Below, in pieces: positions 340 to 45,801 of a stretch of DNA of 64,000 nucleotides (the stretch's first letter is position 1; every line of letters begins with the position of its first letter). The translations under genes were made by a program, and so were the position numbers. The notes below the pieces were generated by a model, which made no database searches, was not told where the DNA came from, and worked only from the letters and a program-made list of their open reading frames with translations. The DNA lies in the NCBI GenBank assembly GCA_030700025.1, contig JAUYKI010000015.1:28623-92622 (forward strand), in the 5' to 3' direction. The stretch is from a bacterium. Lineage in GTDB: Bacteria; Patescibacteriota; Minisyncoccia; UBA6257; 02-FULL-45-10c.

Positions 340-1641
340 ATGTTTTCCAATAACAAACCAAAAGTGGCTATCATCGGCGCGGGAATGTCCGGCCTCGGCG
401 CGGCCATAAAGCTTTTAGAAAGCGGCTATTCCTGCGTTATTTTAGAATCCCAAGCCGAAGCCGGAGGGTTAGCCGGAAGTTTTTCCATTGATAAAAAATA
501 CTTTCCGTTTGGTTATCATCATATTCTTTGCCAAGATAAACCGCTTTTAAAAACCCTTAAAAAGCTGGGACTTTATCCGCAAGTAGCCTGGAAAAAAGGC
601 AAAGTGCTTTTCGCGGTAGACAATCAAATTTATAATCTGGAAAATCCCTGGGAATTTATTAAGTTTCCAATGTCCTGGAAGGCTAAAATTAAATTTGCCA
701 AATTAATGGCTTATTGTTTTTTAAAAAAGGATTGGGAAAAATCTCTTGGCAATGCCCAGAATTGGCTGGATAAAATCGCCGGCGAAGAGGTGCGGAAAAC
801 TATTTTTGATCCTTTAATGGATATCAAATACGGATTGCCTTCCGAAAATCTAAGCGCCAACTGGCTGGGAAGCCGGCTGCATTATCAGGAATTTTCTAAA
901 CCATTGGGATATCTGCCCAATCAAGATTGGACCAAAGTTTTAACTGACAAAATGGCGGAGAAAGTAAAAGAGCTCGGCGGAGAAATTATTACCAATGCTC
1001 CGGTTACAAAAATTCGCTTTAATCAAAATAAAGTAACCGGGCTGACTTATGTCCGCCAAAATCAAAGTTACGATATAAATACGGAGATTGTCATTAATAC
1101 CGCCCCGCCGCATATTTTTCTATCTTTGTGCGACTATCAGGACACCAAATTACAGAAAGTGGAGTATTTGGATGCCCTGTCTTTAATTCTGGAAACTGAG
1201 CAAAAATTACCGCGGGAACTATACCTTTTAAGCTGCCTAAGGCCGCGGTATTCTTTCGGGGGAATATTCATGCTGTCCTCTTTAAATAGAACTATCGGGG
1301 TTAAAAACGGTACGATTGTTAACTTTTTTACTACCCTAAGCCCAAAATATGAATACCTCCGGAGCCAAAATAGCGAAGAACTGCTGGAAACCTACCAGCG
1401 AGATTTTGAAAAAATCTTCGGCTTCCGCTTAGAACCCATTTGGCATCATTTAACATTAATTAAAAACTATTCTCCTAAGTTTTTAAATGATTACAAAAAT
1501 CCGGAAACTCGGGGAAATATTCCGGGGCTTTATTTTGCCGGAAATTATTTAACTTATCCGATTATTACTTCTACCGGAAGCGCGATCGCCTCGGGTGAAA
1601 AGGCCGCTGATTATATTATCCAAGACCACGATGGACATTAA
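340..1641 (+). CDS. FAD/NAD(P)-binding oxidoreductase (amine oxidase / phytoene desaturase-like family)
   Basis: N-terminal dinucleotide-binding motif VAIIGAGMSGLGAA followed by ESQAEAGG (the GxGxxG...E..GG pattern). The ORF is intact at 433 aa. Confidence 0.65.
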   Translation: MFSNNKPKVAIIGAGMSGLGAAIKLLESGYSCVILESQAEAGGLAGSFSIDKKYFPFGYHHILCQDKPLLKTLKKLGLYPQVAWKKGKVLFAVDNQIYNLENPWEFIKFPMSWKAKIKFAKLMAYCFLKKDWEKSLGNAQNWLDKIAGEEVRKTIFDPLMDIKYGLPSENLSANWLGSRLHYQEFSKPLGYLPNQDWTKVLTDKMAEKVKELGGEIITNAPVTKIRFNQNKVTGLTYVRQNQSYDINTEIVINTAPPHIFLSLCDYQDTKLQKVEYLDALSLILETEQKLPRELYLLSCLRPRYSFGGIFMLSSLNRTIGVKNGTIVNFFTTLSPKYEYLRSQNSEELLETYQRDFEKIFGFRLEPIWHHLTLIKNYSPKFLNDYKNPETRGNIPGLYFAGNYLTYPIITSTGSAIASGEKAADYIIQDHDGH

Positions 1642-2344
1642 ATTATCAATAATAATTCCCACTTATAACGAAGAGGGAAATATCGGGCGGTTGCTGACGC
1701 TAACCCATGAAATATTGCAATCGGAATCCATTTCGCACGAGCTGATTGTCGTGGATGACGGAAGTAAGGACAAAACCAGAGAAATAATCCGAACTCTGCA
1801 AAAAACTATTTCGGAAATTATACTGATTGAACGGGACAATGAACGGGGGTTAGCCACCGCTTTAATACGCGGTTATAACCAGGCCCGCGGGCTTTATTTA
1901 GGTTCCATGGACGCGGATTTTGCCCACGACCCCAAGTATATTCCAGCAATGATCCGCATTCTTGATAATGAGAAAGTGGATTTTATCATTGGCTCCCGCT
2001 ATGTCCAGGGCGCGCGCTTTGAGGGAAAGCCCCTTCTCAATAAATTAGCCAGCTTAACCGGGCAATGGCTCATTAAGATACTTTTGGGGCTAAAAATAAA
2101 AGACACGAGCAATAATTATCGGGTCTTTAGAAAAGAGCTTTGGGCGAAAATTAAAGATAAGCTGCATCCCGATGGAAACATTATGATTACCGAAATTGCT
2201 TATTTAGCAGAAAAAAATAATTTCAAATTTAAAGAAATACCAATTCTCTATATTGAAAGGCGCTTGGGCAAAAGCAAATTAAGCGTTTTTAAAGAGACGG
2301 TAAAATTTTTTAAGAATATCCGGAGAATAAAAAATAGCCGTTAA
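1631..2344 (+). CDS. GT2 family glycosyltransferase (polyprenol-phosphate sugar transferase, Dpm1-like)
   Basis: SIIIPTYNEEGNI...VVDDGSKD...DADFAHDP...IGSRY motifs of GT-A / Dpm1-like enzymes. The start was moved to the internal ATG at 1631, giving an 11-nt overlap with the upstream gene. Confidence 0.75.
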   Translation: MDIKLSIIIPTYNEEGNIGRLLTLTHEILQSESISHELIVVDDGSKDKTREIIRTLQKTISEIILIERDNERGLATALIRGYNQARGLYLGSMDADFAHDPKYIPAMIRILDNEKVDFIIGSRYVQGARFEGKPLLNKLASLTGQWLIKILLGLKIKDTSNNYRVFRKELWAKIKDKLHPDGNIMITEIAYLAEKNNFKFKEIPILYIERRLGKSKLSVFKETVKFFKNIRRIKNSR

Positions 2345-2356
2345 CGGCTATTTTTT
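2328..2356. terminator. Bidirectional hairpin terminator (perfect palindrome aaaaaatagccgTTAAcggctatttttt) between convergent genes
   Basis: Palindrome flanked by A/T runs on both sides. It covers the stop codons of both convergent genes. Confidence 0.5.
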
Positions 2357-3339
2357 AAATCAAGTTTTATTTTAGCCAGCACTTTCACGAATCCTTCTTT
2401 AATGGAATATTTCGGTTTCCAGCCCAAACTCTTAATTAATGCGGGGTCGGCTAAAACAGTAAACGAACCCTCAACTTTCTCTGCCAGGGGCTGAATTTTG
2501 GGGCTATAACCCTCTATTTCGGCCATCAACCGCGCCACCTCCTTAAAAGAAGTCGCCTGCCCCAGCCCGATATTCACGCCGCGGCCATCGCTGATATTTC
2601 TAATTGCCAAGCAAAGCGCGTCAACAAAATCATCAATATAAACAAAATCCCGAGTTTGATTTCCCGACCCCCAAACTACCAAGGGGTCCTCTCTTTTAAC
2701 CGCCCGCAAAGCAATGGAAGGAATTGGGTAAGATAAATCCTGATCCTCCCCATAACCGGAAAAAGGCCGGACGCAAACGACCGGCAGGCCGTATTTTTTC
2801 GCGGTCACGCCAGCCAAATATTCTCCATTCACCTTAATCCAGCCATAAATTGATTCCGGTATTCCCACTTCTCCTAAATTATTTCTAAGATCCAGAAATT
2901 CCTCCTTCATGGCAATTTGGCCTCCGGCCTCGCGGCTTTGCAGTTTATTCGGATAAGCCACGGAACTGCTGACATACAAAATCCGGCCAATCTTTTCTTT
3001 ATTTTTTACCGCCCAGCTAAAAAAAGTAGAATCAATAACCTGGTCATAAGCTACAAACATTGGATTCTGCTCTATCAGAACCGCCCGGCCGCCCACCACC
3101 GCCGCCAAATGATATACTTCGTCAAAATACGGCCAATCGGAATTATTATTTAAAAATTCCACTAAATTTTCTTGGACAAAATGAACTTTTGGCTTGTACG
3201 ATTCCGAAAGCCACGCATCCGGATGCTTTCCGCTAAAAAGATTATCAATAATCCAGACATCGCTGCCCTCGCTCAACAATTTATTAACTAAATGCCGGCC
3301 GACAAACCCGCAGCCGCCGGTAATTAAAATTCTTTTCAT
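2341..3339 (-). CDS. NAD-dependent epimerase/dehydratase family protein (nucleotide-sugar epimerase/reductase)
   Basis: N-terminal ILITGGCGFVGRHL Rossmann motif, with typical SDR-extended family length and organisation. Confidence 0.8.
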   Translation of the reverse strand: MKRILITGGCGFVGRHLVNKLLSEGSDVWIIDNLFSGKHPDAWLSESYKPKVHFVQENLVEFLNNNSDWPYFDEVYHLAAVVGGRAVLIEQNPMFVAYDQVIDSTFFSWAVKNKEKIGRILYVSSSVAYPNKLQSREAGGQIAMKEEFLDLRNNLGEVGIPESIYGWIKVNGEYLAGVTAKKYGLPVVCVRPFSGYGEDQDLSYPIPSIALRAVKREDPLVVWGSGNQTRDFVYIDDFVDALCLAIRNISDGRGVNIGLGQATSFKEVARLMAEIEGYSPKIQPLAEKVEGSFTVLADPALIKSLGWKPKYSIKEGFVKVLAKIKLDLKNSR

Positions 3340-3428
3340 ATCGTTATTATATTCTCTTACAATTCATTCAACAATCCTAATAATCCCGAAAGTAAACTTT
3401 TCTAATTGTAAAAAGGCCGTAATATGAC

Positions 3429-4317
3429 CTATAAAATTTCTTCTATTATATTTCTCCCCTTCCAACATAATAAGTTAGTTGCGGCATCTGGGTCGTTTGA
3501 GGGAAAAATTTTATAAAATTCGCGCTCCGTCATGCGCGTTACTTGCTTCTTCTCTTCATCGATTACGACCCACGAAAAATTCTCTTTAGTAAGAATATCA
3601 AAAAATTCCTCAATAGACGTACCGGCGCGCTCCATTTTCCGTGGCCAAACTTCACTAATCAATGTCAGATTGGGATTTTCTCCAAGTACCCGGCGCATAC
3701 CTCGCAAAGCTAATACTTCAGCTCCTTGAATATCCATCTTAATAAAACTTATCGGGGTAGGTGGTTTGATAACTTCGTCCAAAGTAGTAAGTCGTATGCC
3801 CACCCCCTTGGCGCCAAAAGATTCATAAATTCGATTATCGCCTTTATTGTAATCATTTATAAATATTTGGCCGCCGCCCGATTTGTCCGATAAACCCATC
3901 TCGTAAAGATTAACCCGATCTACAAAATGATTTTCTTGTACATTTTGCTTTAGTAACCGAAAAGTCTGTGGCGCCGGTTCAAACGCCCACACCTTACTCT
4001 CTCTCTCTCTCTCTCGTGCCTATCAACTCTGACAGAAGAACGGTGTAGTATCCGACATTCGCTCCAATATCTACCGCGTTGTCCCCTCGGGAGACTAGTT
4101 TACTTATCAAAAAAGTTTCATAGGGTTCATAAGAATTACTAAGCAGCTCTCGACTTATTGTCTCGTCAGTTGGATCAAGATTAAACACAAATCCACGCAC
4201 ATATGCCTTACGGGGCTTTATTGCGCTCAAAATTGAGCGCGCAATAGGTACCTTACGAAGACCAAGGCCTCTAAATGGTGCCAGAAAAAAAAGAATTAAT
4301 TTATATAACTTATTCAT
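3429..4317 (-). pseudogene. FkbM-family SAM-dependent methyltransferase, split into two ORFs (3994..4317 and 3429..3992) by a frameshift inside an (AG)9 tract
   Basis: The upstream ORF carries the SAM-binding motif VDIGANVGYYT and ends ...GTRERERE*, translated from the AG repeat. The downstream ORF carries the FkbM C-terminal motif FIKMDIQGAEVLAL. Adding one AG unit gives an in-frame fusion ...RERERESKVWAFEP of about 295 aa. Confidence 0.6.
3997..4014. repeat. Dinucleotide simple sequence repeat (CT)9 on the plus strand, (AG)9 on the coding strand
   Basis: Counted directly in the sequence; it sits exactly at the junction of the two methyltransferase fragments. Confidence 0.9.
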
Positions 4318-4347
4318 AGTATGGCTCGTAGGGATAAATTTTATCCT

Positions 4348-5961
4348 TTATAACTTATAAACATTTACAAAAGTGCCGCCATAAGCGCGGGCCCCGATTA
4401 ATTCGGGCGTGTCTATTTTAGTAACCCTGGAAATAGGATCGTCAATTCCAAAAAAAGATTTATAGCGATAAGTTAAAACTACCTCATAATCCACCAGATA
4501 ATCAATTCGGTTGTCTTGGAATAATTGCCAAATTTTATTTTCCTTCATTGCCTTATAAGCGCTGTTGTTGATTAATCCGTCGGAATTCATAACAAACCGA
4601 TCGGAAAAATAACCCATAATACCGCTGTTGAAAGCGGCAACCCTGGCATCCGCGGGAAGATTGTTCTTAGTCCAAATTGCGACTTGATACATTCCTAATT
4701 GATTAATATTTTCGGATAAAATCTTATTAAAATGCCCCAAATAAGAAACGCTTAGCAAAACCGCCAAAACCACCAGTGCTTTTCGGCGGTAGGAATATAA
4801 AGTGGCCCGACTTAAAACCAAAGCAATAAAAATCGTGGCGAAAATCGGGAACGTGGCAAAATACCACGACCGGCCAGACCAGCGGATTGCTCCGTGCCCC
4901 GCCACCAGCAAAAAATATCCGGCAAAAAATACCAATAAGGCCAGCCACTCCTTGGAAGAAAAAAGTTCTTTTAAAAAACTCCCCAATTCCATTTTTTTCT
5001 TTTTATAAAAATAAAAAATAATTGCCGAGGGAATGAGCGCGGTCCCCGCCATCCAAAAAAATGACTTAAGCATATCTCGGGTTGAATAATATATCGGCCA
5101 GCCCAAAGTACTAATATTGGAAGCCACGGTGCCAAAAAAATTATGCAGAGACCAAAGTCCGATATAAGTTAAACTCCGCTCTTTATAAAACCAAAGCCGG
5201 TGATTAATTAGGGTGTAAGCCAAACCGCTTGCCGGAACAAAAGAACCGAAATAAAAATAATTATATAAGAACCAGGGGGCAGCTAATAAAAACGCCGGCA
5301 ATCCAAAAAAAAGAAGTTGTTTCCACCGCAATTTCCCAAATCGAAAACCCAAGAAAATAAAAACTGCCGCCAAAAAAACACCGTAATCCAAACGAGAAAG
5401 GACTAGCAATCCTCCGATTATTCCCAAAAGAATGAGGTTCTTTGGCGAGTCCCCGCCTTTAAGGATTTTTAAAAAAATCCTGAAGAATACCGTAAACAGA
5501 AAAAGCGCCAAAGGAGTTTCCAGCCCGCTCAAATAAAAAGACAGGTTCCAGGGATTAATGGCATAAGTTAAAACCAAAAGAGACGGGGCAAGCTTATCAT
5601 TGGTAAAAGTTGAAATAATTTTCCAAATTAATACACTGGTCAGAAAAAAAAGAATGGCGGATAAGGTTAATATAATATGAAGCGGAAGAATTTTATCTCC
5701 GGGGAAAAAATAAAAAACCGCCGCGCTAATGCCCATCCATAAAGGATGGTATCCGTTCGTCGCGTGCTCTCCGTCAAAAGTAGGCCCCAATCCGCTGGTT
5801 AAATTAATCGCGGTTTTAAAATAATAAAAAGCGTCATCTACCAGAAATCTGGCGAGCAGGCTTTCAATCGGCTGCCAAGCCAGCCAAAGATAGGCAAAAA
5901 AAATCAACATCAAGAGTCCTAAAAAAACTTTATTTTCTTTTAAGGAAGTTATTAGATTCAT
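4348..5961 (-). CDS. Polytopic membrane protein with an extracytoplasmic C-terminal domain; putative GT-C-type glycosyltransferase
   Basis: About 12 hydrophobic segments followed by a soluble C-terminus of about 130 aa. It lies in a glycosyltransferase cluster. No specific motif was recognised. Confidence 0.4.
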   Translation of the reverse strand: MNLITSLKENKVFLGLLMLIFFAYLWLAWQPIESLLARFLVDDAFYYFKTAINLTSGLGPTFDGEHATNGYHPLWMGISAAVFYFFPGDKILPLHIILTLSAILFFLTSVLIWKIISTFTNDKLAPSLLVLTYAINPWNLSFYLSGLETPLALFLFTVFFRIFLKILKGGDSPKNLILLGIIGGLLVLSRLDYGVFLAAVFIFLGFRFGKLRWKQLLFFGLPAFLLAAPWFLYNYFYFGSFVPASGLAYTLINHRLWFYKERSLTYIGLWSLHNFFGTVASNISTLGWPIYYSTRDMLKSFFWMAGTALIPSAIIFYFYKKKKMELGSFLKELFSSKEWLALLVFFAGYFLLVAGHGAIRWSGRSWYFATFPIFATIFIALVLSRATLYSYRRKALVVLAVLLSVSYLGHFNKILSENINQLGMYQVAIWTKNNLPADARVAAFNSGIMGYFSDRFVMNSDGLINNSAYKAMKENKIWQLFQDNRIDYLVDYEVVLTYRYKSFFGIDDPISRVTKIDTPELIGARAYGGTFVNVYKL

Positions 5962-7160
5962 TTGTTCAGACTCTTAGATTTAATGTCTTTCATTTTATTC
6001 AGCCATCGCTCAATTTGTTTTTCGTGATTCATTTCGTCTTCGCCCAATCGCTTATAGCAATTACGGGACAGTTCCGCGCGCAAATTAGCATCGTTTCCCA
6101 GTTGTTCTATTTTTTTAGCCAAATCATCCGTATCTTCGTCTTTAAAATAAAGCGCGCTTTTCCGCGCCACCCACTCTAAACCGCCTCCGCCTGGCAAAAT
6201 AGCCGGCAAACCAAAAGCCATGGCATAAGACAGGGAAATAGAGGTATTGTCCGTCCTCCAATGGGCCTGCACAAAGATATCTACTTCCTTGTGCATTTCG
6301 AGCAACCTTTCTCGGGTAACCCAACCGGTCAATTTCATATAAGGATCAAGTTTGAAATCGCTAATCATCCGCCTAATCGCCCCCGCCTCCGGGCCCGTTC
6401 CGCCCAAAATCAAGCGGAAATTATCTTTATTCTTTAATTTAGAAAAAGCCGTTAATAATAAATCAAATCCTTTTCCGGGCGCCATCCGGCTGGAATAAAA
6501 AAGCGCAACCGGGCCGGATTTTTTATTGCGCTTTAAATAATCATCGGGCGAAATATGATTCTCCCTGAAAATTTTCGGGTAATCAATCGGGTCTCCCATA
6601 ATTTGCGCCTGCGGATCTTTTCTCATTCCAAAATCTTCATAAGCCGATCGCAAAACCGGATTGGTATAAAAAATAATATCCATATGGCTCGCGATCGGCA
6701 TTAAAAAATATTTTTCAATCCATCGGCGTAATTTCTTTTTTAGCTGAACCGGGAAAGAATCTTTGGGCGCGCGGAATAAACTGGAAATATTTTCCGGCCA
6801 GCTGGAAAGCTCCCGGTTAAAAAAAGCGGATACGGGAATGCGGCCGCCTAGGAATCGGTATAGTCCGGCGCCATAAAGAAAATTGTGGCCGTCCACGTGG
6901 AAAAAATCGGCTTGGTCAGAATACTTTTTTAAAATTTTAAAGATTCCCTTCTGAATGCCGAATAGTCCCCGCGATGTTATATTTTCTTCAATTAATTTAT
7001 ACGGCAGTGGGTTAGGAATATCGTTCGCATAAGAAAATGCCGTAACGGCCGTTACCTCATTTCCCAGCTTTATCAAGGTCCTAATCATTAAGTCAAACTC
7101 TTCTATGGACCCGCCCGCGGTCCGGAAATTTAATTTGGATGTAATAAAGAAAATTTTCAT
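5958..7160 (-). CDS. GT4-like (GT-B fold) glycosyltransferase
   Basis: Two-Rossmann-domain architecture with a C-terminal ...GLP...GGG... E-x7-E-like region. It overlaps the downstream gene by 4 nt (operon). Confidence 0.6.
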   Translation of the reverse strand: MKIFFITSKLNFRTAGGSIEEFDLMIRTLIKLGNEVTAVTAFSYANDIPNPLPYKLIEENITSRGLFGIQKGIFKILKKYSDQADFFHVDGHNFLYGAGLYRFLGGRIPVSAFFNRELSSWPENISSLFRAPKDSFPVQLKKKLRRWIEKYFLMPIASHMDIIFYTNPVLRSAYEDFGMRKDPQAQIMGDPIDYPKIFRENHISPDDYLKRNKKSGPVALFYSSRMAPGKGFDLLLTAFSKLKNKDNFRLILGGTGPEAGAIRRMISDFKLDPYMKLTGWVTRERLLEMHKEVDIFVQAHWRTDNTSISLSYAMAFGLPAILPGGGGLEWVARKSALYFKDEDTDDLAKKIEQLGNDANLRAELSRNCYKRLGEDEMNHEKQIERWLNKMKDIKSKSLNK

Positions 7161-7222
7161 TTATTATGATAATATAATTAGCAATATAACTCTGATCCAA
7201 GATTATAAGTTATAATACGATA

Positions 7223-10212: not shown

Positions 10213-11218
10213 ATTTCTTGGGATGAGCTCTGTACCATTCAAACGCTCTTTTTAGCCCCTCTTGCAAAGAAACTTGCGGCTGCCAGCCAGTTAACGACTG
10301 TAGCTTAGAAACGTCCGCTAGACGCCTTTTTACGCTTCCCGGGGGCGATTGTTTGATATCCAGCTTCTCCGGATGCCAGCCAGCTATCGCAAATAGTTTT
10401 TCGGCTAATTTCTTCATAGTAATCTCTTCAAAATCGCCGATGTGCACGGTTTCAATCGGCTGGCTATCAGTTTTTACAGAATCCATCAGCATCTGCATTG
10501 CCCGGACCGCGTCTTCTATAAAACAGAAAGTCCGGGTATCGTCGGCGCCGAAAATCGGAAAAGGATCAACCCGCTTAGTAATTCTCTCAACGAATTCCGG
10601 AATCACGTGGTCATAGCCGGCCCTTGGCCCATAAAAATTATGGGGCCGGACAATTAGAGCCCGCAAATTATATTTAGCGGCATAATTAATTACAAAAAGT
10701 TCGCCGACTAATTTAGTGGCCGCGTAAGACCAGCGCGGATTATAAGTGTCTTCAATGACCAAAGGAACTTTCTCCGGCGTCGGAATTGGCAATTGGCCGA
10801 AAGCATTCAAAGCGCCGGCATAAGCTTCATTGGATGATGTAAAGCAAAATTTTCCCTTCGGGCTTTCTTTGCGGAACCATTCCAGCATATAGATCAACGA
10901 TAGCGTATTAATGCGGAGAGTTTCTTGCGGCATTTCATAAAACCACTTGGTGCCATTAACCGCGGCAAGATGATAAACGTGGTCATAATCGCTTCCCAAT
11001 TCTTTATAAGATGCCGGATCGGTTAAATCTAAAGTTAAAAACTTCACCCGCCTATCTTCCAATATTTTTTTAAAATCCGTGTCCATTTTTCCCCGCTGGA
11101 GATTATCAACCAAAACTAGTTCAACATCTTTTTCTGTATCCAAAATATGCTTGGATAAAAAGTATCCAATAAATCCCGCGCCGCCGGTAATAAGAATTTT
11201 CTTTATTTTTCCAGCCAT
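10211..11218 (-). CDS. NAD-dependent epimerase/dehydratase family protein
   Basis: KILITGGAGFIGYFL Rossmann motif; SDR-extended family. Confidence 0.8.
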   Translation of the reverse strand: MAGKIKKILITGGAGFIGYFLSKHILDTEKDVELVLVDNLQRGKMDTDFKKILEDRRVKFLTLDLTDPASYKELGSDYDHVYHLAAVNGTKWFYEMPQETLRINTLSLIYMLEWFRKESPKGKFCFTSSNEAYAGALNAFGQLPIPTPEKVPLVIEDTYNPRWSYAATKLVGELFVINYAAKYNLRALIVRPHNFYGPRAGYDHVIPEFVERITKRVDPFPIFGADDTRTFCFIEDAVRAMQMLMDSVKTDSQPIETVHIGDFEEITMKKLAEKLFAIAGWHPEKLDIKQSPPGSVKRRLADVSKLQSLTGWQPQVSLQEGLKRAFEWYRAHPKK

Positions 11219-12840: not shown

Positions 12841-12905
12841 AGATTTGGAACCTATCAAGTATAAAACCCGTGATTAAAAATTAAAGTTTCTTTAAAAAAA
12901 GCGGG

Positions 12906-33080: not shown

Positions 33081-33081
33081 T

Positions 33082-34266
33082 TTAGAGATTAATCAGCCGA
33101 TTAAAAATATTTCTGAATAATTTCACTATTATCTCCCAGGAATAATTTTGCTTCACCATCAAGCGGGCATTATTAATTACCGGCTTAATACGGCTTGGAT
33201 TATCCAAAACGTATTTTATTTTTTCCGCTAATGCCTCCGAGTCTCCAACGGGCACAAAAAAACCGGTTTGTCCGTCTTTTAAGAAATCGATTATTCCTCC
33301 AACCGGCGTGCCAATTACCGGCAAACCGGCCGCCATGGCTTCCAAAAAAGAATTACCAAGCCCCTCTGAACGCGATGCTCGGACAAAAATATCCGCAATT
33401 TTAAAATAAATCGGCAAATCGCGCTGAGGCATTTGCCCTAAAAAAATAATCTGATGGCCGATCTTTAATTTTTCACTTTGCCATTTTAATTTTGGGTGAT
33501 CCGGTCCGCCGCCAATAATCAAACATTTTACAACCAGTCTTTTCTCTTTTAACTTCGCAATGGCGTCTATCAGAATATCAATGCCGTTCTTGTAAACCAG
33601 CCGGGAAGTCGTGATAACAATATATTCATCTTTAATGCCTAAATTTTCCCGAATAGATTTTATTTCTGAATCTTTATAGGCGGAATTGAATAATTCCCAA
33701 TCCACTCCATTAGGCACTACCTCAATGGGACAGACGGCTCCTTTTTTATTGGCAATGTCTTTAAGGTAATTACTGATAACTTGAATAAAATCCGCCTTCC
33801 AAATAATTTGCTTCCCAAAGAGTCCCACCAATCCTAATTTTCCTAAAGATAAATATTTTTCTGAATCTCCTTCTTGAATAGTTAACAGCAAAGGAACGCG
33901 CGGATGGCGCATCTTAAAGAATAATGCCGCGACGCCCCCATAAGAAGCCATAATCGCCCAGATAACTTCAAACCGTTTCTGCCGGTGCAATTCTTCCGCC
34001 TTTTGCCAGGAAGAAAAAATATAAATAATTTTATCCCAAATACGGCCATAATATTTCCCGCCGCTTCGGCCCCGTCCCAGCCGGACAATATCGGCGTTTT
34101 CCGCCGCTTCCCGCGAAAGCCATCGGCTATCAAATTTGAAGGTAAAAATCGTAAAATTCAGCCCCTTTAAGCGCTTTATAACCTCCCGGGCAGCTATTTC
34201 CGCACCCCCCTCAAAAGGGGTGTAAGCAAGCGAAAAAACTGCTATATTTGGCTCTTTAGGAAACAT
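33082..34266 (-). CDS. GT4 family glycosyltransferase
   Basis: ...IFVRASRSEGLGNSFLEAMAAGLPVI... region. Confidence 0.75.
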   Translation of the reverse strand: MFPKEPNIAVFSLAYTPFEGGAEIAAREVIKRLKGLNFTIFTFKFDSRWLSREAAENADIVRLGRGRSGGKYYGRIWDKIIYIFSSWQKAEELHRQKRFEVIWAIMASYGGVAALFFKMRHPRVPLLLTIQEGDSEKYLSLGKLGLVGLFGKQIIWKADFIQVISNYLKDIANKKGAVCPIEVVPNGVDWELFNSAYKDSEIKSIRENLGIKDEYIVITTSRLVYKNGIDILIDAIAKLKEKRLVVKCLIIGGGPDHPKLKWQSEKLKIGHQIIFLGQMPQRDLPIYFKIADIFVRASRSEGLGNSFLEAMAAGLPVIGTPVGGIIDFLKDGQTGFFVPVGDSEALAEKIKYVLDNPSRIKPVINNARLMVKQNYSWEIIVKLFRNIFNRLINL

Positions 34267-35441: not shown

Positions 35442-36221
35442 TTATGACTTAAGTGCCGCCAGCTCCTCTCGCAATTCCTGGTTGTCGGGAGTTAATGCTA
35501 GCGCTTCGTCAAAATATTTAATAGCGTCTGCCTTCCGCCCAAGCCGGATATAATACTTACCCAACTCGATTTTCAATACCGCTACTTCGGAATTTTCCCG
35601 GATTCCCTCAAGAAGAATGTTCTCTGTCCGAACTATATCCTTTAATGAAAATTCATATAAAATCGCTAATTGTTGATAGGCCGAAACATTTTGCGGATTT
35701 TTTTGGATAGACTGCAAAAAACTCCGTTCCCCCTTGGCATAATCTTTTAAATAAAATGCGTATAAGTCGCCCAAGTTTTGATCAAAAATATAATCTTTGG
35801 GCCTTAAAATACTGCCAAAAGTCCAAGCCTCAATCGCGCCGTCATAATCGCCGATTAATCGGCGGTAAGCGCCCAAGTCATACCATTGATATACCTCGTC
35901 ATAATAATTTTTAATGGATTCATTTAACTCTTGAATTTTAGCCACGGCTTGCTGCCGGGAACTTTCCGGCAAAGACGCCGTCACTACTATCGGCCTGGCA
36001 ATGATTTTTAATACCCAGCCTTGAATGTCCTCAAGAATATCCGCCTTGGCAGGTTCGGTAACGCCGGTCGTCTGGTTGCCGCCCACCGCAAGGGATTTAT
36101 CTAAAGATTGCGGATTCTCTAAGTTGAGGTCAGCCGCGATATCCTTTCGTCCCGATTGGACATACCACCAAAAGATTCCCGCCAAAACTGCCGCCAAAAA
36201 TAAAATTAAAATTCTTTTCAT
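35442..36221 (-). CDS. Signal-anchored TPR-repeat protein
   Basis: N-terminal hydrophobic segment, then repeated TPR-like helices (A..Y..LG..Y, LGKYYIRLGRKADAIKYFDEALALTPDN). Confidence 0.55.
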   Translation of the reverse strand: MKRILILFLAAVLAGIFWWYVQSGRKDIAADLNLENPQSLDKSLAVGGNQTTGVTEPAKADILEDIQGWVLKIIARPIVVTASLPESSRQQAVAKIQELNESIKNYYDEVYQWYDLGAYRRLIGDYDGAIEAWTFGSILRPKDYIFDQNLGDLYAFYLKDYAKGERSFLQSIQKNPQNVSAYQQLAILYEFSLKDIVRTENILLEGIRENSEVAVLKIELGKYYIRLGRKADAIKYFDEALALTPDNQELREELAALKS

Positions 36222-39355: not shown

Positions 39356-39362
39356 TAATCAA

Positions 39363-40289: not shown

Positions 40290-40296
40290 ATGTTTA

Positions 40297-41997
40297 TTAT
40301 AGCTTAAATTTATAAACTTTGAACATTAAGAGATTATTATGGCCATAAATAACGTGGGCGGGGCTCAAATTAAGCTCTTGAGTTAGATAAACTTCTAATT
40401 CTTGCGCTGAAGTATTTTGAAAAAGGGGATTTAAAATAGTATCTGGTTCCGCCTTAACAAAATAAATTTCATAACCGCTGAAGGCGTTCGGGCCTTCTTT
40501 TTGCAAGAAGTTTCTGAATTGATCCACGTTAAAATTAGGAACTCCCTGGTAATAATTGCGCCGGGTAAAAAGCCACAGCCTAGGCGAAAGTCCGATGTTG
40601 CTGTCATAGGCCACCAGCATGGATTTATCCGCCGGCGGAATTTTTATCGCCCAAGATTTAATAATCTTATTAAGATGGGGGTTCGGGGAAGCGGGTATGG
40701 ACAAAGACCGCTTATTGCCCAGTTGGGCGCTTAAATAATTATCCAGCTTAACGATGCCGAAGTCCGGAAAATTATAAAAAAGATCTGAGGCAAAAAATAA
40801 TTCATAGGCGGCAAAAATAGCAATCAAAATAAGCAATAAACTTTTTTTATTGAACCGCGAAAGCAAATAATCAATTGCTAAAACTATCAGCATTACCGCC
40901 GGCGCCGAATACAAAACAATAAAGCGAAAACCCGACCCGGCTGCTACCAGCATTAAAGTTATAAAAATGATATTCAGCCACCAGAATAAATAAAGCTGGC
41001 TTTTGCCCCGGCCTTCTTCGGAACCTTCTGATTTTTTAATCCCAAAAACCTTATAAAAACCATAGGCGATTCCCGCCAGTGAAAATAAGATAAATGGAAT
41101 AGAAAAAACTAATTTTAAATTAGTTAAAATTTCGGAAAACGGGTCCTGAATTTTACCCAGGGATACCCGCCACTCCGGAGTCTCTTGTTGAAACAAATAA
41201 GAAAATTGCAGGTCAAAGTGGCCTAAATTAGCTAAAAGATAAAAATTATAAATTAAAACCGGGCTAAATAAGACAGCTGCCAATCCCAACGCGCAATAAA
41301 ATGACTTCCACTTAAAAACTTCTCTGCGAAAAATTAAAAGATAAATTGCGTAAACTGGCAGCAAAAAAGCGCTGGTGTATTTAGTTAAAAAGCTAAGCCC
41401 CAAAGTGAGCCCGAATAATTTCCATTTTTGCCGATTTTCCAAAAACCGGAAAAACGCGTAAATGTTCCAAAGGATGAAAAATATCTGAACTGATTCCATC
41501 AAGCTGGCGCGGGAAATCCAAAGATGAAGCAGGTTCACGGCTAAAAGCAATGGCGGCAAAAAAACCAGCCAGGTATTTTTTTCCTGCCTGCCGACAGGTA
41601 TGGCGCCCTTGGTAAAAAAAGTTTTCTTGGAAATTAAATAGAGCAGATAAACCGAAAGCGTGCCGGCAATAGCCGAAGGCAAGCGGGCGGCAAACAGCGA
41701 AATTCCGAAAATTTTAAAAAATGCGTTTTGAATTAAAAAGAAGAGTGGCGGGTGGTCGTGAAAAGAAAGCGATGTCCACCAGGGTAAAGATGGGGCGTCT
41801 TTGAACCACTGAACCGGTGTAGTCTGGTCGTCGTTCTGAATATAATCCAAATAATCAATGGAGCGAAAGGCTTTGAATCCTTCATCGTGAAAAAACTCCG
41901 CGCTTCCGAGTCCCCACAAGCGCAAAACCGCGGCCAATATCACAATAGCCGCTAAAATCTGCTTTTCCGTTATTTTATGAGAAAAAACTGTAAGCAT
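40297..41997 (-). CDS. GT-C fold membrane glycosyltransferase (ArnT/PMT-like); paralogue of 36241..37935
   Basis: DEGFKAFRSIDY motif and long colinear similarity to 36241..37935. Confidence 0.6.
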   Translation of the reverse strand: MLTVFSHKITEKQILAAIVILAAVLRLWGLGSAEFFHDEGFKAFRSIDYLDYIQNDDQTTPVQWFKDAPSLPWWTSLSFHDHPPLFFLIQNAFFKIFGISLFAARLPSAIAGTLSVYLLYLISKKTFFTKGAIPVGRQEKNTWLVFLPPLLLAVNLLHLWISRASLMESVQIFFILWNIYAFFRFLENRQKWKLFGLTLGLSFLTKYTSAFLLPVYAIYLLIFRREVFKWKSFYCALGLAAVLFSPVLIYNFYLLANLGHFDLQFSYLFQQETPEWRVSLGKIQDPFSEILTNLKLVFSIPFILFSLAGIAYGFYKVFGIKKSEGSEEGRGKSQLYLFWWLNIIFITLMLVAAGSGFRFIVLYSAPAVMLIVLAIDYLLSRFNKKSLLLILIAIFAAYELFFASDLFYNFPDFGIVKLDNYLSAQLGNKRSLSIPASPNPHLNKIIKSWAIKIPPADKSMLVAYDSNIGLSPRLWLFTRRNYYQGVPNFNVDQFRNFLQKEGPNAFSGYEIYFVKAEPDTILNPLFQNTSAQELEVYLTQELNLSPAHVIYGHNNLLMFKVYKFKL

Positions 41998-42165
41998 AAT
42001 TTATATTTTATCACAGATTTTCGTATATTCGTAATTTTTTCGTATTTCGTAGCTATTTAAATATTCGAATGGGCGCATTTGTAACGCGCTTTCGCATGCA
42101 ACCAAAAGCCCCGCAAAGCGGGGCTTATTGGCCTCATCCCTAAATTATCTCAAGTAATTTAGAAA

Positions 42166-45100: not shown

Positions 45101-45801
45101 CCCACGGAGTCTAACAAGAGAACGCCATCTAATGCGGCGTCCGCAGCAAGACCAATTCTTTCCACGGTCAAAGAGTTAACAGTTACATCGCCATCGGCAG
45201 ATGCAGTTAACAAAACTTTAGTGAAAGGAATTCGTGCGGCATCACCAGGAGCCAAGCTGGAAACTGGCTGATCGGAAGCTAAGCTTACGGTCAAACCGGA
45301 ACCGGCTGGGACTGGAGCTGGGGTGGTAGTGCCAGGAACAGTAACAACACCGCCAGCCATTGAATTATATTTGGCCTGCGAAAGCGGACCAAAATAACCA
45401 ACTGCTGGAACAACGCCGTTAGCGGCCTGCCACTTTGCAACCGCTGCTCTGGTTAAAGAACCAAAGTAGGTAGATTCATTGCCAACCGAACCAGCGCCGC
45501 TTGCCGCAACCGCGTGTCCAGCAGCGTTCAAGTATTTCTGTAAGCAACGGACATCTTCACCCGTGAAGCCCACTGTGAGGGAGCGAGTCCATGAGCAAGC
45601 GCCTGCTACTACAGTACTTGGAGTTCCGGACAACTGCGCTTGCAAAGCAGTAATCTGCGTAAGCAAGGCGTTGATTTGAGCTTGCAATTCTTCTACGGTT
45701 GCACCATAAGCGACTGGCAACAAAGCGCCAGCGCCAGAAAGTGAAACGACTGTAGCAACAGATACTACAGTTGTAGAAATTTTTGTAAGTAATTTACTCA
45801 T
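42166..45801 (-). CDS. Giant (about 1211 aa) secreted Ser/Thr/Gly/Ala-rich surface protein. It has a signal peptide, a coiled coil, a peptidoglycan-binding-like domain and a long beta-rich region. It is a probable glycosylation substrate.
   Basis: MSKLLTKISTTVVSVATVVSLSGAGA signal; EELQAQINALLTQITALQAQL coiled coil; CLQKYLNAAG...AVAKWQ PG-binding-like domain; then more than 1000 aa at high S/T/G/A/V content. The ORF as listed starts at a TTG inside the inverted repeat; the true start is taken as ATG at 45801, with GAGAGGA upstream. Confidence 0.7.
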   Translation of the reverse strand: MSKLLTKISTTVVSVATVVSLSGAGALLPVAYGATVEELQAQINALLTQITALQAQLSGTPSTVVAGACSWTRSLTVGFTGEDVRCLQKYLNAAGHAVAASGAGSVGNESTYFGSLTRAAVAKWQAANGVVPAVGYFGPLSQAKYNSMAGGVVTVPGTTTPAPVPAGSGLTVSLASDQPVSSLAPGDAARIPFTKVLLTASADGDVTVNSLTVERIGLAADAALDGVLLLDSVGNQLGIKKTLNSEHKANVGETFVVKAGQTVSVVVAANRAAVGGSYGGQTLALRVTAVNTSASVFGTPLVGTTHTINETLTIGSVTMARGPLDPGSSQTKEIGTTGYVFSSVKVTAGSAEKIYVKSIRWNQTGSAGKADLENVKTIVDGVSYDTVVSSDGKYYSTVFPGSGILMDKGFNKEIVVKGDVVSGSSRTVDFDLAKRTDLFVVGETYGYGIVPPQTGATDPTDDTAAFSNVEDPWYDAAQVTISTGTMSVSSWNTVAAQNIAVNLADQPLGGWSVEVKGEAISVSNMKFQLLLTEDAGGTTGLGMNDLDNVKIVDESGKVLAGPLDASGTTLTGPSLTFTDTITFPIGVTNFKLVGKLAAGTAAFENNDTLQASSTPSTWTTTGQSTGNAITPSPTSAVAGQQMTAKGPALTISVSAVPIAQTVIAGVNQFEFARYILDTSASGEDLRLTSLPLEYNPTTGNATDLTNCKLYDGVTILNSGSNAVSPSARSSTTAFTFDGTGLTLTKGTSKQLSLKCDLKSAATGSYSWGYDSTAAPSPTGLVSGQTATLTENDNIGQLMTAATVGSMSVSLDSAAPYMIVAPGQTVELAKLKFSATNEDVSLKQVSLMMSGAASNTPINLVGQQVTLWDGATQVGAATFPGSEAAGVTNRATSTNITNFVVPKDGSKVLTVKGVISGISASGPMTRSGDFPKLNYDGGGGLTATYGTGVSSGQTVSPTSASTDSTGVRIAKGYPSFSKIDLTSSERAFTTGVSVPFYKFKVTANSGDISLAKLTFSFSSSTVSATTSRYSLFVFTDAGFSSADGNFSGANNPGGLVNAGNCYSGGALNTAGAFISGGLQSIVEIYPDVTGCNLATTTIKIPSGESRWFRLEASVATLAPSGTAESMSVQLEGDAAFPTNIQGGSAVSGDMGTFGHLGEIGVNDATHNDFLWSPRSTSTNESDSAYLNNLDWTNGYGVMGLPSTNMTSETLTK

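Follow-up and report, generated by a model that had tools for sequence, protein, structure and literature searches.

A glycosyltransferase island linked to a conserved wall-anchored surface protein in a Parcubacterium: a candidate envelope glycosylation locus

The window analysed here, a stretch of 64,000 nucleotides, comes from a tiny uncultured groundwater-type bacterium of the Parcubacteria (Patescibacteria/CPR), close to Candidatus Harrisonbacteria. An island of glycosyltransferase (GT) genes spans 1.6-42 kb of the window, in a block of ~45 kb; it ends at the gene for a secreted protein of 1211 residues, here called BIG, and the GT block lies directly downstream of that gene. The island encodes nine GT-C membrane glycosyltransferases, eight GT4 and six soluble GT2 enzymes, together with GDP-6-deoxyhexose and methylation enzymes (Table 1; genes are named below by their first coordinate). 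The gene layout given in an earlier note on this DNA was recovered.

Table 1. Features of the island and its BIG-proximal flank, in window coordinates.
Position	Strand	Feature	Evidence
1595..2344	+	GT2, Dpm1/ArnC/AglJ-like	PF00535 106 bits; best NCBIfam ArnC, AglJ, PpgS
2341..3339	-	NAD-dependent epimerase/reductase, GDP-fucose-synthase-like	PF01370/PF16363; Fcl 95 bits, below cut-off
3429..4317	-	FkbM-type methyltransferase, two ORFs	PF05050 on ORF 3429-3992; SAM motif on ORF 3994-4317
4348..5961	-	GT-C, divergent PMT_2/GT39-like	VDDAFYY first-loop motif; polytopic
5958..7160	-	GT4	PF00534 75.9 bits
7223..8470	+	NDP-hexose C-methyltransferase (Methyltransf_13/14)	PF08421, PF08484
8412..9530	+	GFO/IDH/MocA sugar oxidoreductase	PF01408, PF02894
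9630..10181	+	NUDIX hydrolase	PF00293
10211..11224	-	NDP-sugar 4,6-dehydratase/epimerase	PF16363 156 bits; best NCBIfam dTDP-glucose dehydratase-like, below cut-off
11203..12858	-	UDP-Glc/GDP-Man dehydrogenase-like domain + methyltransferase fusion	PF00984 + PF08241
12906..14657	-	GT-C, Pfam-less family	AF2 + Foldseek
14629..15264	-	Class I methyltransferase	PF08241
15264..15995	-	GT2, PgfS/ArnC-like	PF00535 96 bits; best NCBIfam PgfS; adjoins GT-C 16017
16017..17726	-	GT-C, paralogue of 12906	BLASTP to 12906 E 3e-10 over 536 aa
17850..18719	-	Methyltransferase	PF13489
18728..19852	-	GT4	PF00534 137 bits
19928..20896	-	GDP-mannose 4,6-dehydratase (Gmd)	TIGR01472 452 bits (cut-off 415, passed); PF16363 448 bits
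20953..22443	-	GT-C (PMT_2)	PF13231 34.9 bits; IDEAK first-loop motif; overlaps GT2 22367
22367..23128	-	GT2, PpgS/AglJ-like	PF00535; PpgS 75.8 bits, nearly full model
23129..23830	-	GT2, AglJ-like	PF00535 123.6 bits; AglJ 122 bits
23842..24564	+	GT2	PF00535 73 bits
24582..25913	-	GT-C (PMT / PMT_2)	PF02366 33.1 bits, PF13231 33.2 bits
25904..27019	-	GT4	PF00534
27135..28352	-	GT4	PF00534 131 bits
28313..29059	-	GT2, pair with GT-C 29065	PF00535
29065..30723	-	GT-C (PMT_2), conserved after GT4 quartet	PF13231 40.3 bits; synteny
30724-31941, 31926-33080, 33082-34266	-	Three GT4	PF00534 134-152 bits
34301..35428	+	GT4, divergent orientation, 4th of conserved GT4 quartet	PF00534 118 bits; synteny
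35442..36221	-	Membrane-anchored extracytoplasmic TPR protein	TPR Pfam matches; N-terminal TM helix
36241..37956	-	GT-C (PMT_2/PMT), BIG-linked orthologue group	PF13231 94.5 bits
37943..39355	-	GT-C (PMT_2/ArnT-like)	PF13231 85 bits; ArnT 52.9 bits
39363..40289	-	PGB, secreted 308-aa PG_binding_1 protein	PF01471; coiled coil, Pro/Ser/Thr linker
40297..41997	-	GT-C (PMT_2), first gene behind BIG	PF13231 78 bits; synteny
42100..42125	-	Intrinsic-terminator-like hairpin + U tract	Directly after BIG stop codon
42166..45801	-	BIG, secreted, peptidoglycan-anchored, 1211 aa	PF01471; β-sandwich domains
46545..47297	-	DeoR-like HTH protein, upstream of BIG	PF08220

All nine membrane proteins proposed in the earlier note to be GT-C enzymes are supported as such: six (20953, 24582, 29065, 36241, 37943 and 40297) pass the Pfam PMT_2 gathering score, 4348 is supported by its homologues, 12906 by structure and 16017 by homology. 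All nine are polytopic, and an acidic DE/DD motif, claimed for at least five, follows the first membrane helix in at least seven. 4348 has no Pfam match of its own; its homologues at ~55% identity bear PF13231 and are named GT39. The proteins 40297 and 36241 are 41% identical, and a profile of the BIG-adjacent GT-C family matches yeast Pmt1 (1.4e-8), ArnT (2e-6) and also Pmt4 in the PDB; within this family D41 is invariant and E42 is at least 90% conserved.

The six GT2 proteins described as Dpm1-like were all confirmed by PF00535 and have no hydrophobic segments. Their top scores are to polyprenyl-phosphate sugar synthases (ArnC, AglJ, PpgS, PgfS and a haloarchaeal Dol-P-hexose transferase), every one under the equivalog cut-off. 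The likely start of the first GT2 gene is the ATG at 1631. At four places GT2 genes adjoin or overlap a GT-C gene (28313/29065, 22367/20953, 23842-23129/24582 and 15264/16017), and the adjacency of the 29065-type GT-C with a GT2 recurs in three relatives' loci.

Two GT-C proteins, 12906 and its paralogue 16017, belong to a family of 3345 clusters. Searches with 12906 (573 aa, 12906-14627, with the NCBI start) gave no sequence match in Pfam, NCBIfam or the PDB; its AlphaFold (AF2) model, with a pLDDT of 92, matched PglB best in Foldseek (E 1e-6), then STT3, AftA, AglB, DPY19, ArnT and Pmt4, and the modelled structure confirms the Pfam-less family as GT-C. The gene 16017 carries a simple sequence repeat, a C8 tract in codons 2-4 (17716-17723). 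Members of the 12906 family occur fused to GT2 (four proteins), to GtrA_DPMS_TM (four) and to GT4 (one), which ties the family to polyprenol-phosphate-sugar chemistry. The polyprenol-phosphate enzymology that had been proposed for the GT2 and GT-C enzymes is supported by all nine GT-C proteins, the best GT2 scores, the adjacent pairs and the fusions.

With PglB, STT3 and AglB as the best structural matches of 12906, the island might also glycosylate BIG en bloc, much as in archaeal Agl N-glycosylation; a GT2 would prime polyprenol monophosphate, the GT4s would extend the chain in the cytoplasm, 12906 or 16017 would transfer the oligosaccharide, and the other GT-Cs would add the final sugars. 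The GT2 matches to AglJ and weak matches of three GT-Cs to Agl23 are consistent with this, and under such a scheme the GT4s would have a function that needs no phosphoglycosyltransferase. The TM-scores are only ~0.5, however, with AftA, ArnT and DPY19 almost equal in score; 12906 has no PF02516 match, the almost invariant positions of the aligned family include nothing like the WWD catalytic motif, and both genes sit in the island's variable distal part, away from BIG. The fusions to GtrA and GT2 suggest monosaccharides as donors, and we consider en-bloc transfer improbable.

Among the accessory genes, the FkbM-type methyltransferase is split at an (AG)9 repeat (3997-4014), and one additional GA unit would join both ORFs. 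PF00534 confirmed eight of the nine claimed GT4 genes; no ninth was found, leaving the ninth, a weaker call, unsupported. Homologues of the trio 30724..34266 are present in 16-21 BIG loci. In a purely PMT-like scheme it is not obvious what the eight GT4s would do. The GtfA/GtfB and SdgA/SdgB enzymes O-glycosylate serine-rich repeat adhesins in the cytoplasm before export, and the GT4s of the island match the SdgA/SdgB and GtfA models weakly (41-85 bits vs cut-offs of 575-800). We nonetheless hold it very improbable that these GT4s modify BIG in this way before export: their scores against dozens of other, unrelated GT4 families are just as good, serine-rich or SD repeats are missing from BIG, and the window holds no accessory SecA2/SecY2.

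BIG consists of a signal peptide, a helix, a PG_binding_1 domain, a short Thr/Pro linker and ~9-10 Ig-like β-sandwich domains. Its N-terminus is signal-peptide-like (MSKLLTK, a hydrophobic core and AYG|A). The AF2 model (pLDDT 81) matches only generic Ig-like arrays in the PDB, and we rejected the view of BIG as a mucin-like protein, as it is a folded β-sandwich array. More than 1300 homologues are found in Parcubacteria, at 42-71% identity (47-71% for the best 120 listed), and 354 species genomes encode a relative. Serine and threonine make up 23.4% of BIG, evenly distributed along the chain; in its relatives they amount to 24.5% with and 24.6% without neighbouring GT genes, and the linkers are similar in both cases. 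Given the folded domains and this equal composition, the hundreds of Ser and Thr residues cited earlier are not evidence for glycosylation. Sites of PMT-type appearance are limited in BIG to short, disordered Thr/Pro-rich linkers, such as residues ~150-163 (pLDDT <50) within GGVVTVPGTTTPAPVPAGSG. The PGB gene sits between GT-C genes, a synteny kept in the nearest clade, and all 33 PGB homologues have an S/T/P-rich tract. The poly-Thr/Pro linkers of BIG and PGB are hypervariable (T14 in one relative) and are plausible candidate O-glycosylation sites.

The GT genes cluster on one side of BIG. Of 51 species loci, 19 have two or more in the 10 kb downstream, against 3 of 55 for the upstream side; in raw counts that ignore kinship, there are 93 GT genes in 504 kb downstream vs 6 in 539 kb upstream. 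The reverse also holds: of the metagenome loci with a GT-C at least 40% identical to 36241 or 40297 and at least 5 kb of upstream sequence, every one (17 of 17) carries BIG upstream (again a raw count, kinship ignored). The recurrent array is HTH-BIG-GT-C-PGB-GT-C/TPR-4xGT4-GT-C-GT2. The TPR protein is a near-universal partner of BIG, with a homologue downstream in 68 of 72 loci, and GT-C genes intervene between the two. The HTH gene 46545 tends to be present where the locus bears GT genes (both present in 10 loci, HTH only in 1, GT only in 3, neither in 24). The proposed link between GT genes and the surface protein is supported from both directions.

BIG might still have no functional link to the GT genes and merely adjoin a hypervariable glycan locus that is a hot spot of recombination. 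The island has a G+C of ~0.41 vs ~0.45 for the BIG gene and flank, a strong terminator-like hairpin (fold -23.8 kcal/mol, z = -4.4) stands between BIG and the first GT-C gene, and in 32 of 51 BIG loci at most one GT gene is detectable in the 10 kb downstream. Gene content also differs among relatives' islands, which hold polysaccharide deacetylase and CMP-sugar genes as well as KpsC/S-like Capsule_synth genes, a type typical of lipid-linked polysaccharides. Against these points stand the one-sided enrichment, the reverse association and the GT-C genes inserted between BIG and TPR, and we regard mere proximity as quite unlikely.

Building on the enzyme families and folds, the gene pairing, the domain fusions and the two-way conserved synteny, we suggest that this is an envelope glycosylation island in genetic linkage with BIG, the wall-anchored surface protein conserved in the lineage, and that BIG and PGB are the likely acceptors, a reading to which we give about an even chance. 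The Gmd, epimerase/reductase, C-methyltransferase and O-methyltransferase genes would provide GDP-6-deoxyhexose derivatives, and the GT4s would consume nucleotide sugars in the cytoplasm; the Dpm1/PpgS/AglJ-like GT2s would place single sugars on polyprenol phosphate, and after flipping across the membrane these would be transferred by the GT-Cs at its outer face, most likely to BIG and PGB and chiefly at the disordered linkers. The acceptor above all, be it protein, lipid or wall polymer, is inferred, and so are the donor sugars, the GT4 roles and the flipping step. The route would amount to O-glycosylation of an S-layer-like envelope protein in the style of Pgf, GtrB-PgtC or Ppm1-Pmt. In other bacteria, cnm is co-transcribed with pgfS-pgfM1-pgfE (PMC5856776), Ser/Thr-rich disordered regions are glycosylated by GtrB + PgtC2 and by the Pgf system (PMC12041528), and in Geobacillus slg clusters lie near S-layer genes (PMC2943079). 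Classical S-layer O-glycosylation clusters have a phosphoglycosyltransferase, Wzx or an ABC transporter, and an O-oligosaccharyltransferase, whereas profile searches of the window found no initiating phosphoglycosyltransferase, Wzx, ABC transporter or Wzy_C-type O-oligosaccharyltransferase; nor does the window hold a GtrA-like or other flippase gene. The missing GtrA-like flippase, phosphoglycosyltransferase and O-oligosaccharyltransferase count against protein O-glycosylation, as do the hairpin, the GT-poor loci, the Capsule_synth genes of relatives, the GT4s without a role, and the equal Ser+Thr content and similar linkers where GT neighbours are missing.

The main rival, which we hold to be a serious possibility although short of an even chance, is that the island makes a glycopolymer of the envelope that is not protein-borne, which would be a lipoglycan or a polysaccharide attached to the wall. 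Cytoplasmic GT4s would prime synthesis on a lipid and the GT-Cs would extend or decorate the product outside from polyprenol-phosphate sugars, as in mycobacterial PIM/LM/LAM synthesis or Gram-positive teichoic-acid/rhamnan decoration; BIG, PGB and TPR would be neighbours because layer and glycan form one envelope, not through protein glycosylation. The combination of GT4s, Dpm1-like GT2s and many GT-Cs resembles such pathways, and the three-component GT2/GtrA/GT-C systems characterised mostly modify glycopolymers (PMC8035078, PMC11127046). A PIM-like reading was proposed earlier in a Saccharibacterium (PMC6031116), and several Dol-P-Man-transferase-like genes were remarked in Peribacteria (PMC4736985). 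The gene content of relatives' islands, the terminator after BIG and the retention of BIG without adjoining GT genes in most lineages point the same way. The window, however, gave no LCP ligase, Wzy, GT87 or Emb-type match, besides having no phosphoglycosyltransferase, Wzx or ABC exporter, and the BIG-linked GT-C orthologues occur with BIG in all 17 loci and are interleaved with PGB and its Thr/Pro linker.

Of the O-glycosylation reading in the earlier note, the GT2/GT-C enzymology and the link to BIG are supported, and the Ser/Thr argument is not. The island falls within known GT2 + GT-C envelope glycosylation, as a variant, and the linkage of the GT block to BIG across many relatives suggests that this surface protein is probably sugar-coated.

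The earlier note had read nine membrane proteins of the island as glycosyltransferases of the GT-C type. Profile, homology and structure comparisons bore this out, and somewhat more strongly than had been claimed, since the three proteins without a Pfam match (genes 4348, 12906 and 16017, named here by their start positions) also belong to the GT-C class, and since all nine are polytopic and at least seven carry, as read from the sequence, an acidic motif of the DE/DD type in their first loop. In the family alignment of the GT-C adjacent to BIG, the 1211-aa secreted surface protein, residues D41 and E42 of this motif are conserved. For 4348, relatives at ~55% identity bear PF13231 and carry the NCBI name GT39, and a VDDAFYY motif follows its first helix. 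Four of the enzymes also exceed the 22.7-bit cut-off of PF02366 (PMT), namely 24582 (33.1 bits), 36241 (58.9), 37943 (57.2) and 40297 (27.8); PMT_2 outscores PMT in the last three and equals it in 24582, and the C-terminal PMT_4TMC domain (PF16192) is absent from all nine proteins at E <= 0.01. Yeast Pmt1 is the best match of the profile built from the GT-Cs adjacent to BIG (1.4e-8), with ArnT near (2e-6). Modification of lipid A by ArnT was rejected, as all nine proteins score far under the ArnT equivalog cut-off and lipid A/LPS genes are absent from the window. CPR envelopes are generally regarded as being without LPS. One Parcubacterium has been reported to lack it (PMC5220378).

As a single sequence, 12906 gave no match in Pfam, NCBIfam or the PDB, and a PDB search with its family profile was also empty; PDB searches with 36241 and BIG as single sequences returned nothing. 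The family alignment comprised 12906, 26 homologues and the paralogue 16017, which is homologous to 12906 over 536 residues (E 3e-10). When the AlphaFold2 model of 12906 (mean pLDDT 92, pTM 0.90) was compared with the PDB by Foldseek, the top matches were exclusively GT-C enzymes: PglB came first (E 1.3e-6, TM 0.50), followed by yeast and human STT3, AftA, AglB, DPY19, ArnT and Pmt4. This result establishes a GT-C fold, and not membership of the oligosaccharyltransferases. The window has no match to PF02516 (STT3), the likeness of 12906 to STT3, PglB and AglB is at fold level only (TM ~0.5), and no WWDYG/WWD-like motif was evident among the nearly invariant residues of the alignment, to which this comparison was confined.

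When databases were searched exhaustively with the profile of the 12906 family, 3345 cluster representatives (50% identity) reached E <= 1e-3, and 1345 of them E <= 1e-30. Four of the longer members have an N-terminal GT2 domain (P0324, P0331, P0420, P0384), four an N-terminal GtrA/DPMS membrane domain (P0329, P0333, P0405, P0413) and one an N-terminal GT4 domain (P0330), and these fusions tie the family to a route that leads from GT2 through a flippase to GT-C. The GtrA and GT2 fusions also speak against an Agl-like pathway in which an OST-like 12906 would transfer a glycan en bloc, which we consider unlikely despite the PglB and AglB matches of the fold search. Large and unclassified as it is, the 12906 family could merit definition as a new family. 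GtrA itself (PF04138) has no match in window ORFs of at least 150 aa, and the small ORFs that were inspected are not GtrA-like. Adjoining clpB is a very hydrophobic polytopic membrane protein of 243 aa with no Pfam match; Harrisonbacteria have a 255-aa gene at the equivalent position.

The six GT2 proteins (233-253 aa) contain no hydrophobic 19-mer above 1.7, i.e. no membrane helix; the C-terminal membrane helices of the GtrB/ArnC type are absent from all six, which resemble the soluble DPM1/PpgS type. Their top NCBIfam matches are ArnC, AglJ, PpgS, PgfS and a haloarchaeal Dol-P-hexose transferase, often over nearly the full model, with all scores far under the equivalog cut-offs and with generic GT2 families matching too. 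GT2 and GT-C genes abut or overlap in four places (28313/29065, 22367/20953, 23842-23129/24582 and 15264/16017).

The island, from ~1.6 to 42 kb, consists of densely packed ORFs, mainly on the minus strand, with no intergenic gap larger than 355 bp (ORF map); its G+C content is ~0.41, compared with ~0.45 in the BIG gene and the right flank. Its glycosyltransferases and the features around them are listed in the table. A ninth, weaker GT4 in the earlier count was not found in the Pfam scans, which leaves eight; attempts to name these through NCBIfam gave dozens of families level in score, all far under their cut-offs. The accessory genes encode a GDP-mannose 4,6-dehydratase (TIGR01472, 452 bits against a cut-off of 415), two more SDR epimerases/dehydratases/reductases, an NDP-hexose C-methyltransferase, a GFO/IDH/MocA oxidoreductase, a NUDIX hydrolase, one dehydrogenase-methyltransferase fusion and three further methyltransferases. 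From established sugar-nucleotide chemistry, we infer that these enzymes would supply GDP-mannose-derived 6-deoxyhexoses with C- and O-methylation. Exact-sequence look-ups of the window's Gmd and of BIG gave no match. Among the window ORFs, Pfam searches found no phosphoglycosyltransferase, Wzx, Wzy, ABC exporter, LCP ligase, Wzy_C or STT3 domain, and classical en-bloc glycosylation of the slg, PglL or PglB type was ruled out for want of a phosphoglycosyltransferase, a transporter, Wzy_C and STT3.

Features of the island and its surroundings, in window positions (strand in brackets where recorded)
Feature	Position	Assignment or remark
GT2 genes (6)	1595/1631-2344, 15264-15995, 22367-23128, 23129-23830, 23842-24564, 28313-29059	PF00535
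GT4 genes (8), by start	5958, 18728, 25904, 27135, 30724, 31926, 33082, 34301	PF00534
GT-C genes (6), by start	20953, 24582, 29065, 36241, 37943, 40297	PMT_2 above gathering score (Pfam)
GT-C genes (3)	4348, 12906, 16017-17726	no Pfam match
Sugar methyltransferase gene	3429-4317 (-)	FkbM type, two ORFs
(AG)9 repeat	3997-4014	
C8 homopolymer	17716-17723 (-)	codons 2-4 (Pro-Pro-Pro) of 16017
TPR protein gene	35442-36221 (-)	membrane-anchored
PGB gene	39363-40289 (-)	308-aa secreted PG_binding_1 protein
Hairpin and U tract	42125-42100	after BIG stop codon
BIG gene	42166-45801 (-)	1211-aa secreted surface protein
HTH gene	46545-47297 (-)	250 aa
YunG-deaminase fusion and DUF7768 genes	47409-48781 (+)	
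Polytopic membrane protein gene	48865-49596 (-)	243 aa
Diversity-generating retroelement	54868-57371	
Reverse transcriptase gene	54868-55929 (-)	RVT_1
Avd-like ORF	55822-56181	119 aa, strand opposite the retroelement
Template repeat (TR)	~56208-56336	
ORF with variable repeat	56610-57371 (-)	
Variable repeat (VR)	~56616-56744	3' end of ORF 56610-57371
Phosphoglucomutase/phosphomannomutase gene	58765-60476 (-)	seemingly interrupted
Domain I ORF	60090-60476	
78-aa ORF	59783-60019	between the mutase fragments
Domain II-IV ORF	58765-59796	

Simple repeats touch two of the island's genes. The (AG)9 repeat divides the FkbM-type gene, which one more unit would restore to a single frame, and in GCA_030647465.1 the FkbM homologue is divided at a G9 homopolymer instead (L086, 14581-14589). 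As judged from the repeats, the split genes suggest either phase-variable methylation of the glycan by slipped-strand mispairing or assembly errors at repeats. The C8 tract of 16017, now in frame, could be a second contingency tract; ~0.5 such runs are expected by chance in the window. Farther to the right lies a diversity-generating retroelement, whose template and variable repeats (129 nt, 81% identity) differ exclusively at adenines of the template copy; it is an insertion here, because the syntenic Harrisonbacteria locus L001 is without the cassette. Beyond it, the mutase gene appears to be broken into the fragments listed in the table, where Harrisonbacteria have one 465-aa gene.

BIG begins with MSKLLTK, followed by a hydrophobic stretch and AYG-A, and contains a PG_binding_1 domain and 23.4% Ser+Thr, evenly distributed; an identical entry exists at NCBI, on a 94-kb MAG contig. 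It has more than 1300 homologues, of which the best-scoring 120 listed are mostly full-length (~1150-1280 aa), share 47-71% identity and come from Harrison-, Giovannoni-, Sung-, Niyogi-, Yanofsky-, Lloyd-, Kaiser- and Taylorbacteria. BIG is thus no low-complexity adhesin. Relatives occur in 354 species-representative genomes, and mean column identity in the alignment is 55-56%. In the AlphaFold2 model (pLDDT 81), an N-terminal helix and a helical wall-binding domain are followed by a disordered linker (residues ~150-163 of the full-length protein, pLDDT < 50) and then by ~9-10 beta-sandwich domains. Foldseek returned only generic Ig-like arrays (hydin, PrgB, alpha-2-macroglobulin, integrin legs), and no specific S-layer family. 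By analogy, these features would fit a conserved structural envelope protein, resembling the 'beads on a string' of Bacilli S-layer proteins. The strong hairpin and the U tract after the stop codon are terminator-like (-23.8 kcal/mol, z = -4.4).

The linkage between BIG and the island was followed in both directions. Outward from BIG, the window proteins were compared by phmmer with the ORFs of 83 distinct BIG loci. In 68 of 72 loci, the region downstream of BIG encodes a homologue of the membrane-anchored TPR protein (within 300 bp in 51), and BIG and TPR thus form a conserved core. At least two glycosyltransferase genes lie within 10 kb downstream of BIG in 19/51 loci, compared with 3/55 upstream (Fisher p = 7e-5, shared ancestry uncorrected), and, summed over the loci, 504 kb of downstream sequence contain 93 such genes and 539 kb of upstream sequence contain 6, again with shared ancestry uncorrected. 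The order in the nearest clade is BIG, GT-C (40297 type), PGB, GT-C (36241 type), TPR and four GT4, where PGB is the secreted peptidoglycan-binding protein; in this order, the GT-C genes are an insertion that separates BIG from TPR, its partner. Outward from the GT-Cs, a metagenome scan with the 36241/40297 family gave 77 loci, and BIG was found upstream in all 17 that combined a GT-C of 40% identity or more with 5 kb or more of upstream sequence, while paralogues under 40% identity lie mostly at other places than behind BIG. The array that recurs is HTH, BIG, GT-C, PGB, GT-C and TPR in varying order, four GT4, a GT-C of the 29065 type and GT2. As synteny runs both ways, a merely accidental adjacency of BIG and the island is quite improbable.

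The HTH gene upstream of BIG encodes a protein whose sole recognised domain is a C-terminal DeoR-like HTH. Loci that bear glycosyltransferase genes make up 10/11 of those with this gene and 3/27 of those without it; the gene may encode a regulator or else be a clade marker. Between it and the 243-aa membrane protein lie a fusion of YunG with a cytidine/dCMP deaminase and then a DUF7768 protein, a pair that has no connection with the island.

In GCA_016192685.1, a Harrisonbacteria genome, ~32 kb separate BIG from the 4348 homologue, whose orientation is kept, and the island is similarly long but differs in part of its gene content, which includes CMP-sugar, Capsule_synth and RGP genes. The islands of this locus (L085, JACPTS010000001.1 151880-173466) and of L086 hold CMP-sugar/nonulosonic-acid-type genes (CTP_transf_3, DegT, HpcH), a KpsC/S-like Capsule_synth gene, an RGP-type mutase, a polysaccharide deacetylase and duplicated C-methyltransferases. 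Synteny and the differing content of relatives thus mark the proximal part (28-47 kb) as a conserved unit, in contrast to a variable distal part (1.6-28 kb), which is hypervariable between species.

The earlier note had also taken the hundreds of Ser and Thr residues of BIG as evidence for glycosylation, an argument we have dropped because BIG homologues with neighbouring glycosyltransferase genes are not richer in these residues: Ser+Thr is 24.5% with such neighbours and 24.6% without (p = 0.62), and S/T/P-rich windows cover 104 and 95 residues, respectively (p = 0.25). The linkers of BIG do not differ between the two groups of loci either. Of the 283 Ser/Thr in the window's BIG, 80 are kept as Ser/Thr in at least 90% of homologues, which fits positions in a folded protein and not mucin-like sites. 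The linker that joins the wall-binding domain to the first beta domain is, however, hypervariable, a Thr/Pro/Gly tract that reads, for example, STVTTSTSSTTTTTTTTTTAPAGT in L010, whereas L011 has fourteen Thr here and L016 has twelve; a like Thr/Pro tract is also present in L066, a BIG locus free of glycosyltransferase genes. All 33 of 33 PGB homologues have an S/T/P-rich tract; in the window's PGB, the Thr/Pro linker covers residues ~125-165. With our confidence evenly divided, we suggest that the Thr/Pro linkers of BIG and PGB are the acceptor and are O-glycosylated, a view favoured by the hypervariable tracts of both proteins, by the streptococcal precedents and by the Pmt1-like GT-C profile. 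Cytoplasmic glycosylation of the SRRP type would also place glycans on a surface protein, but BIG has no serine-rich repeats and the window no SecA2/Y2, and we regard it as extremely improbable.

The main rival to linker O-glycosylation is a lipid- or wall-linked glycopolymer that would co-assemble with the protein layer. GT4s together with Dpm1-like GT2s and many GT-Cs are also the mycobacterial PIM/LM/LAM pattern, most characterised three-component systems have glycopolymers as targets (PMC8035078, PMC11127046), KpsC/S-like genes occur in relatives' islands, and a purely PMT-like scheme leaves the GT4s without a role. Set against this, genes for backbone synthesis, export and ligation were not found in the window, and the GT-C group is strictly bound to BIG and PGB; we thus see a glycopolymer as a serious possibility that nonetheless falls short of being probable.

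The chemistry, a probable GT2 polyprenol-phosphate-sugar synthase combined with a GT-C, is of a known kind; as working models, Pgf/GtrB-PgtC2 and actinobacterial Ppm1/Pmt come nearest. Like the island, the streptococcal Pgf (PgfS-PgfM1-PgfE-PgfM2) and GtrB-PgtC2 systems combine these two enzymes with secreted proteins and a monoderm envelope (PMC5856776, PMC12041528), and they glycosylate extracytoplasmic Thr/Ser-rich disordered tracts, as the island's candidate sites are (PMC12041528). Like BIG, cnm, which encodes the Pgf substrate, sits immediately upstream; it is co-transcribed with pgfS-pgfM1-pgfE although a leaky terminator intervenes (PMC5856776). The island differs in having nine GT-C, six GT2 and eight GT4 genes as opposed to two GT-C and one GT2, GT2s without the C-terminal membrane helices of GtrB/PgfS, and genes for deoxyhexoses and methylation; its tracts are short linkers and not long repeat regions, and its substrates are candidates only. 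Actinobacterial Ppm1/Pmt (GT39) O-mannosylation shares a soluble Dpm1-like GT2 and a GT-C with a first-loop DE motif, and modifies secreted proteins at Thr/Pro-rich regions during export, Pmt1 being the best profile match of the BIG-adjacent GT-C. In the island, however, PMT_4TMC is missing, ArnT is nearly as similar, there are many paralogues and extra GT4s, and the sugars are probably not mannose alone.

Other systems share part of the pattern. The slg clusters of Geobacillus, Paenibacillus and Aneurinibacillus also have a large, probably monocistronic surface-protein gene beside a low-G+C glycan cluster, with deoxyhexose synthesis genes, methyltransferases and a TPR protein (WsaA) (PMC2943079). 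Their glycan is built on undecaprenyl-PP from WsaP, exported by Wzm/Wzt and transferred en bloc by the Wzy_C-type O-OTase WsaB (PMC2943079), whereas no window ORF belongs to these families (Pfam), and GT-C with Dpm1-like GT2 predominate. GtrA/GtrB/GT-C systems for LTA, WTA, rhamnan and O-antigen decoration also pair GT2 and GT-C genes (PMC8035078, PMC11127046), and the same logic is seen where members of the 12906 family are fused to GtrA or GT2 domains; their acceptors, in contrast, are glycopolymers, and the window has no GtrA gene and no genes for backbone-polymer synthesis. Mycobacterial PIM/LM/LAM and eukaryotic/archaeal ALG and Agl pathways run, as that of the island would, from cytoplasmic GT4 steps to several extracytoplasmic GT-C steps, supplied by Dpm1-type polyprenol-phosphate sugars, but the island has no PimE/GT87, Emb or ALG family match and no STT3 domain. 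For CPR genomes, many glycosyltransferases, possibly for a glycosylated S-layer (PMC5220378), and several Dol-P-Man-transferase-like genes (PMC4736985, PMC6031116) have been reported; our literature searches yielded general remarks on CPR glycosyltransferases only, and we found the BIG-TPR module, the locus and the 12906 family described nowhere.

The cell envelope of Patescibacteria/CPR is largely unknown, yet these episymbionts rely on contact with the host surface. Ultra-small cells have been seen to bear an S-layer-like coat, for which the two-gene module described here is a strong candidate: in at least 354 species-level genomes, a membrane TPR protein accompanies a peptidoglycan-anchored protein of ~1200 aa made up of beta-sandwich domains. 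The linked GT-C, GT2 and GT4 set predicts a protein-linked or envelope glycan with methylated 6-deoxyhexoses, and domain fusions place a Pfam-less GT-C family in glycosylation from polyprenol-phosphate sugars. We speculate, tentatively and with more doubt than belief, that Parcubacteria have a lineage-wide S-layer-like glycoprotein system, in which BIG and its TPR partner would bear a complex glycan with methylated 6-deoxyhexose, built for the most part on the outer side of the membrane. As many as nine GT-C enzymes, among them members of the unclassified family of 3345 sequence clusters, would be supplied by up to six different polyprenol-phosphate sugars, and simple-sequence repeats would turn methylation of the glycan on and off. 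Such a system would be a bacterial counterpart of the extracytoplasmic assembly lines of the ER lumen or of mycobacteria, with a protein as target. If BIG is indeed the acceptor, no protein glycosylation system would have been described in CPR bacteria before this one, which would also be a case of stepwise extracytoplasmic glycosylation with unusually many paralogues.
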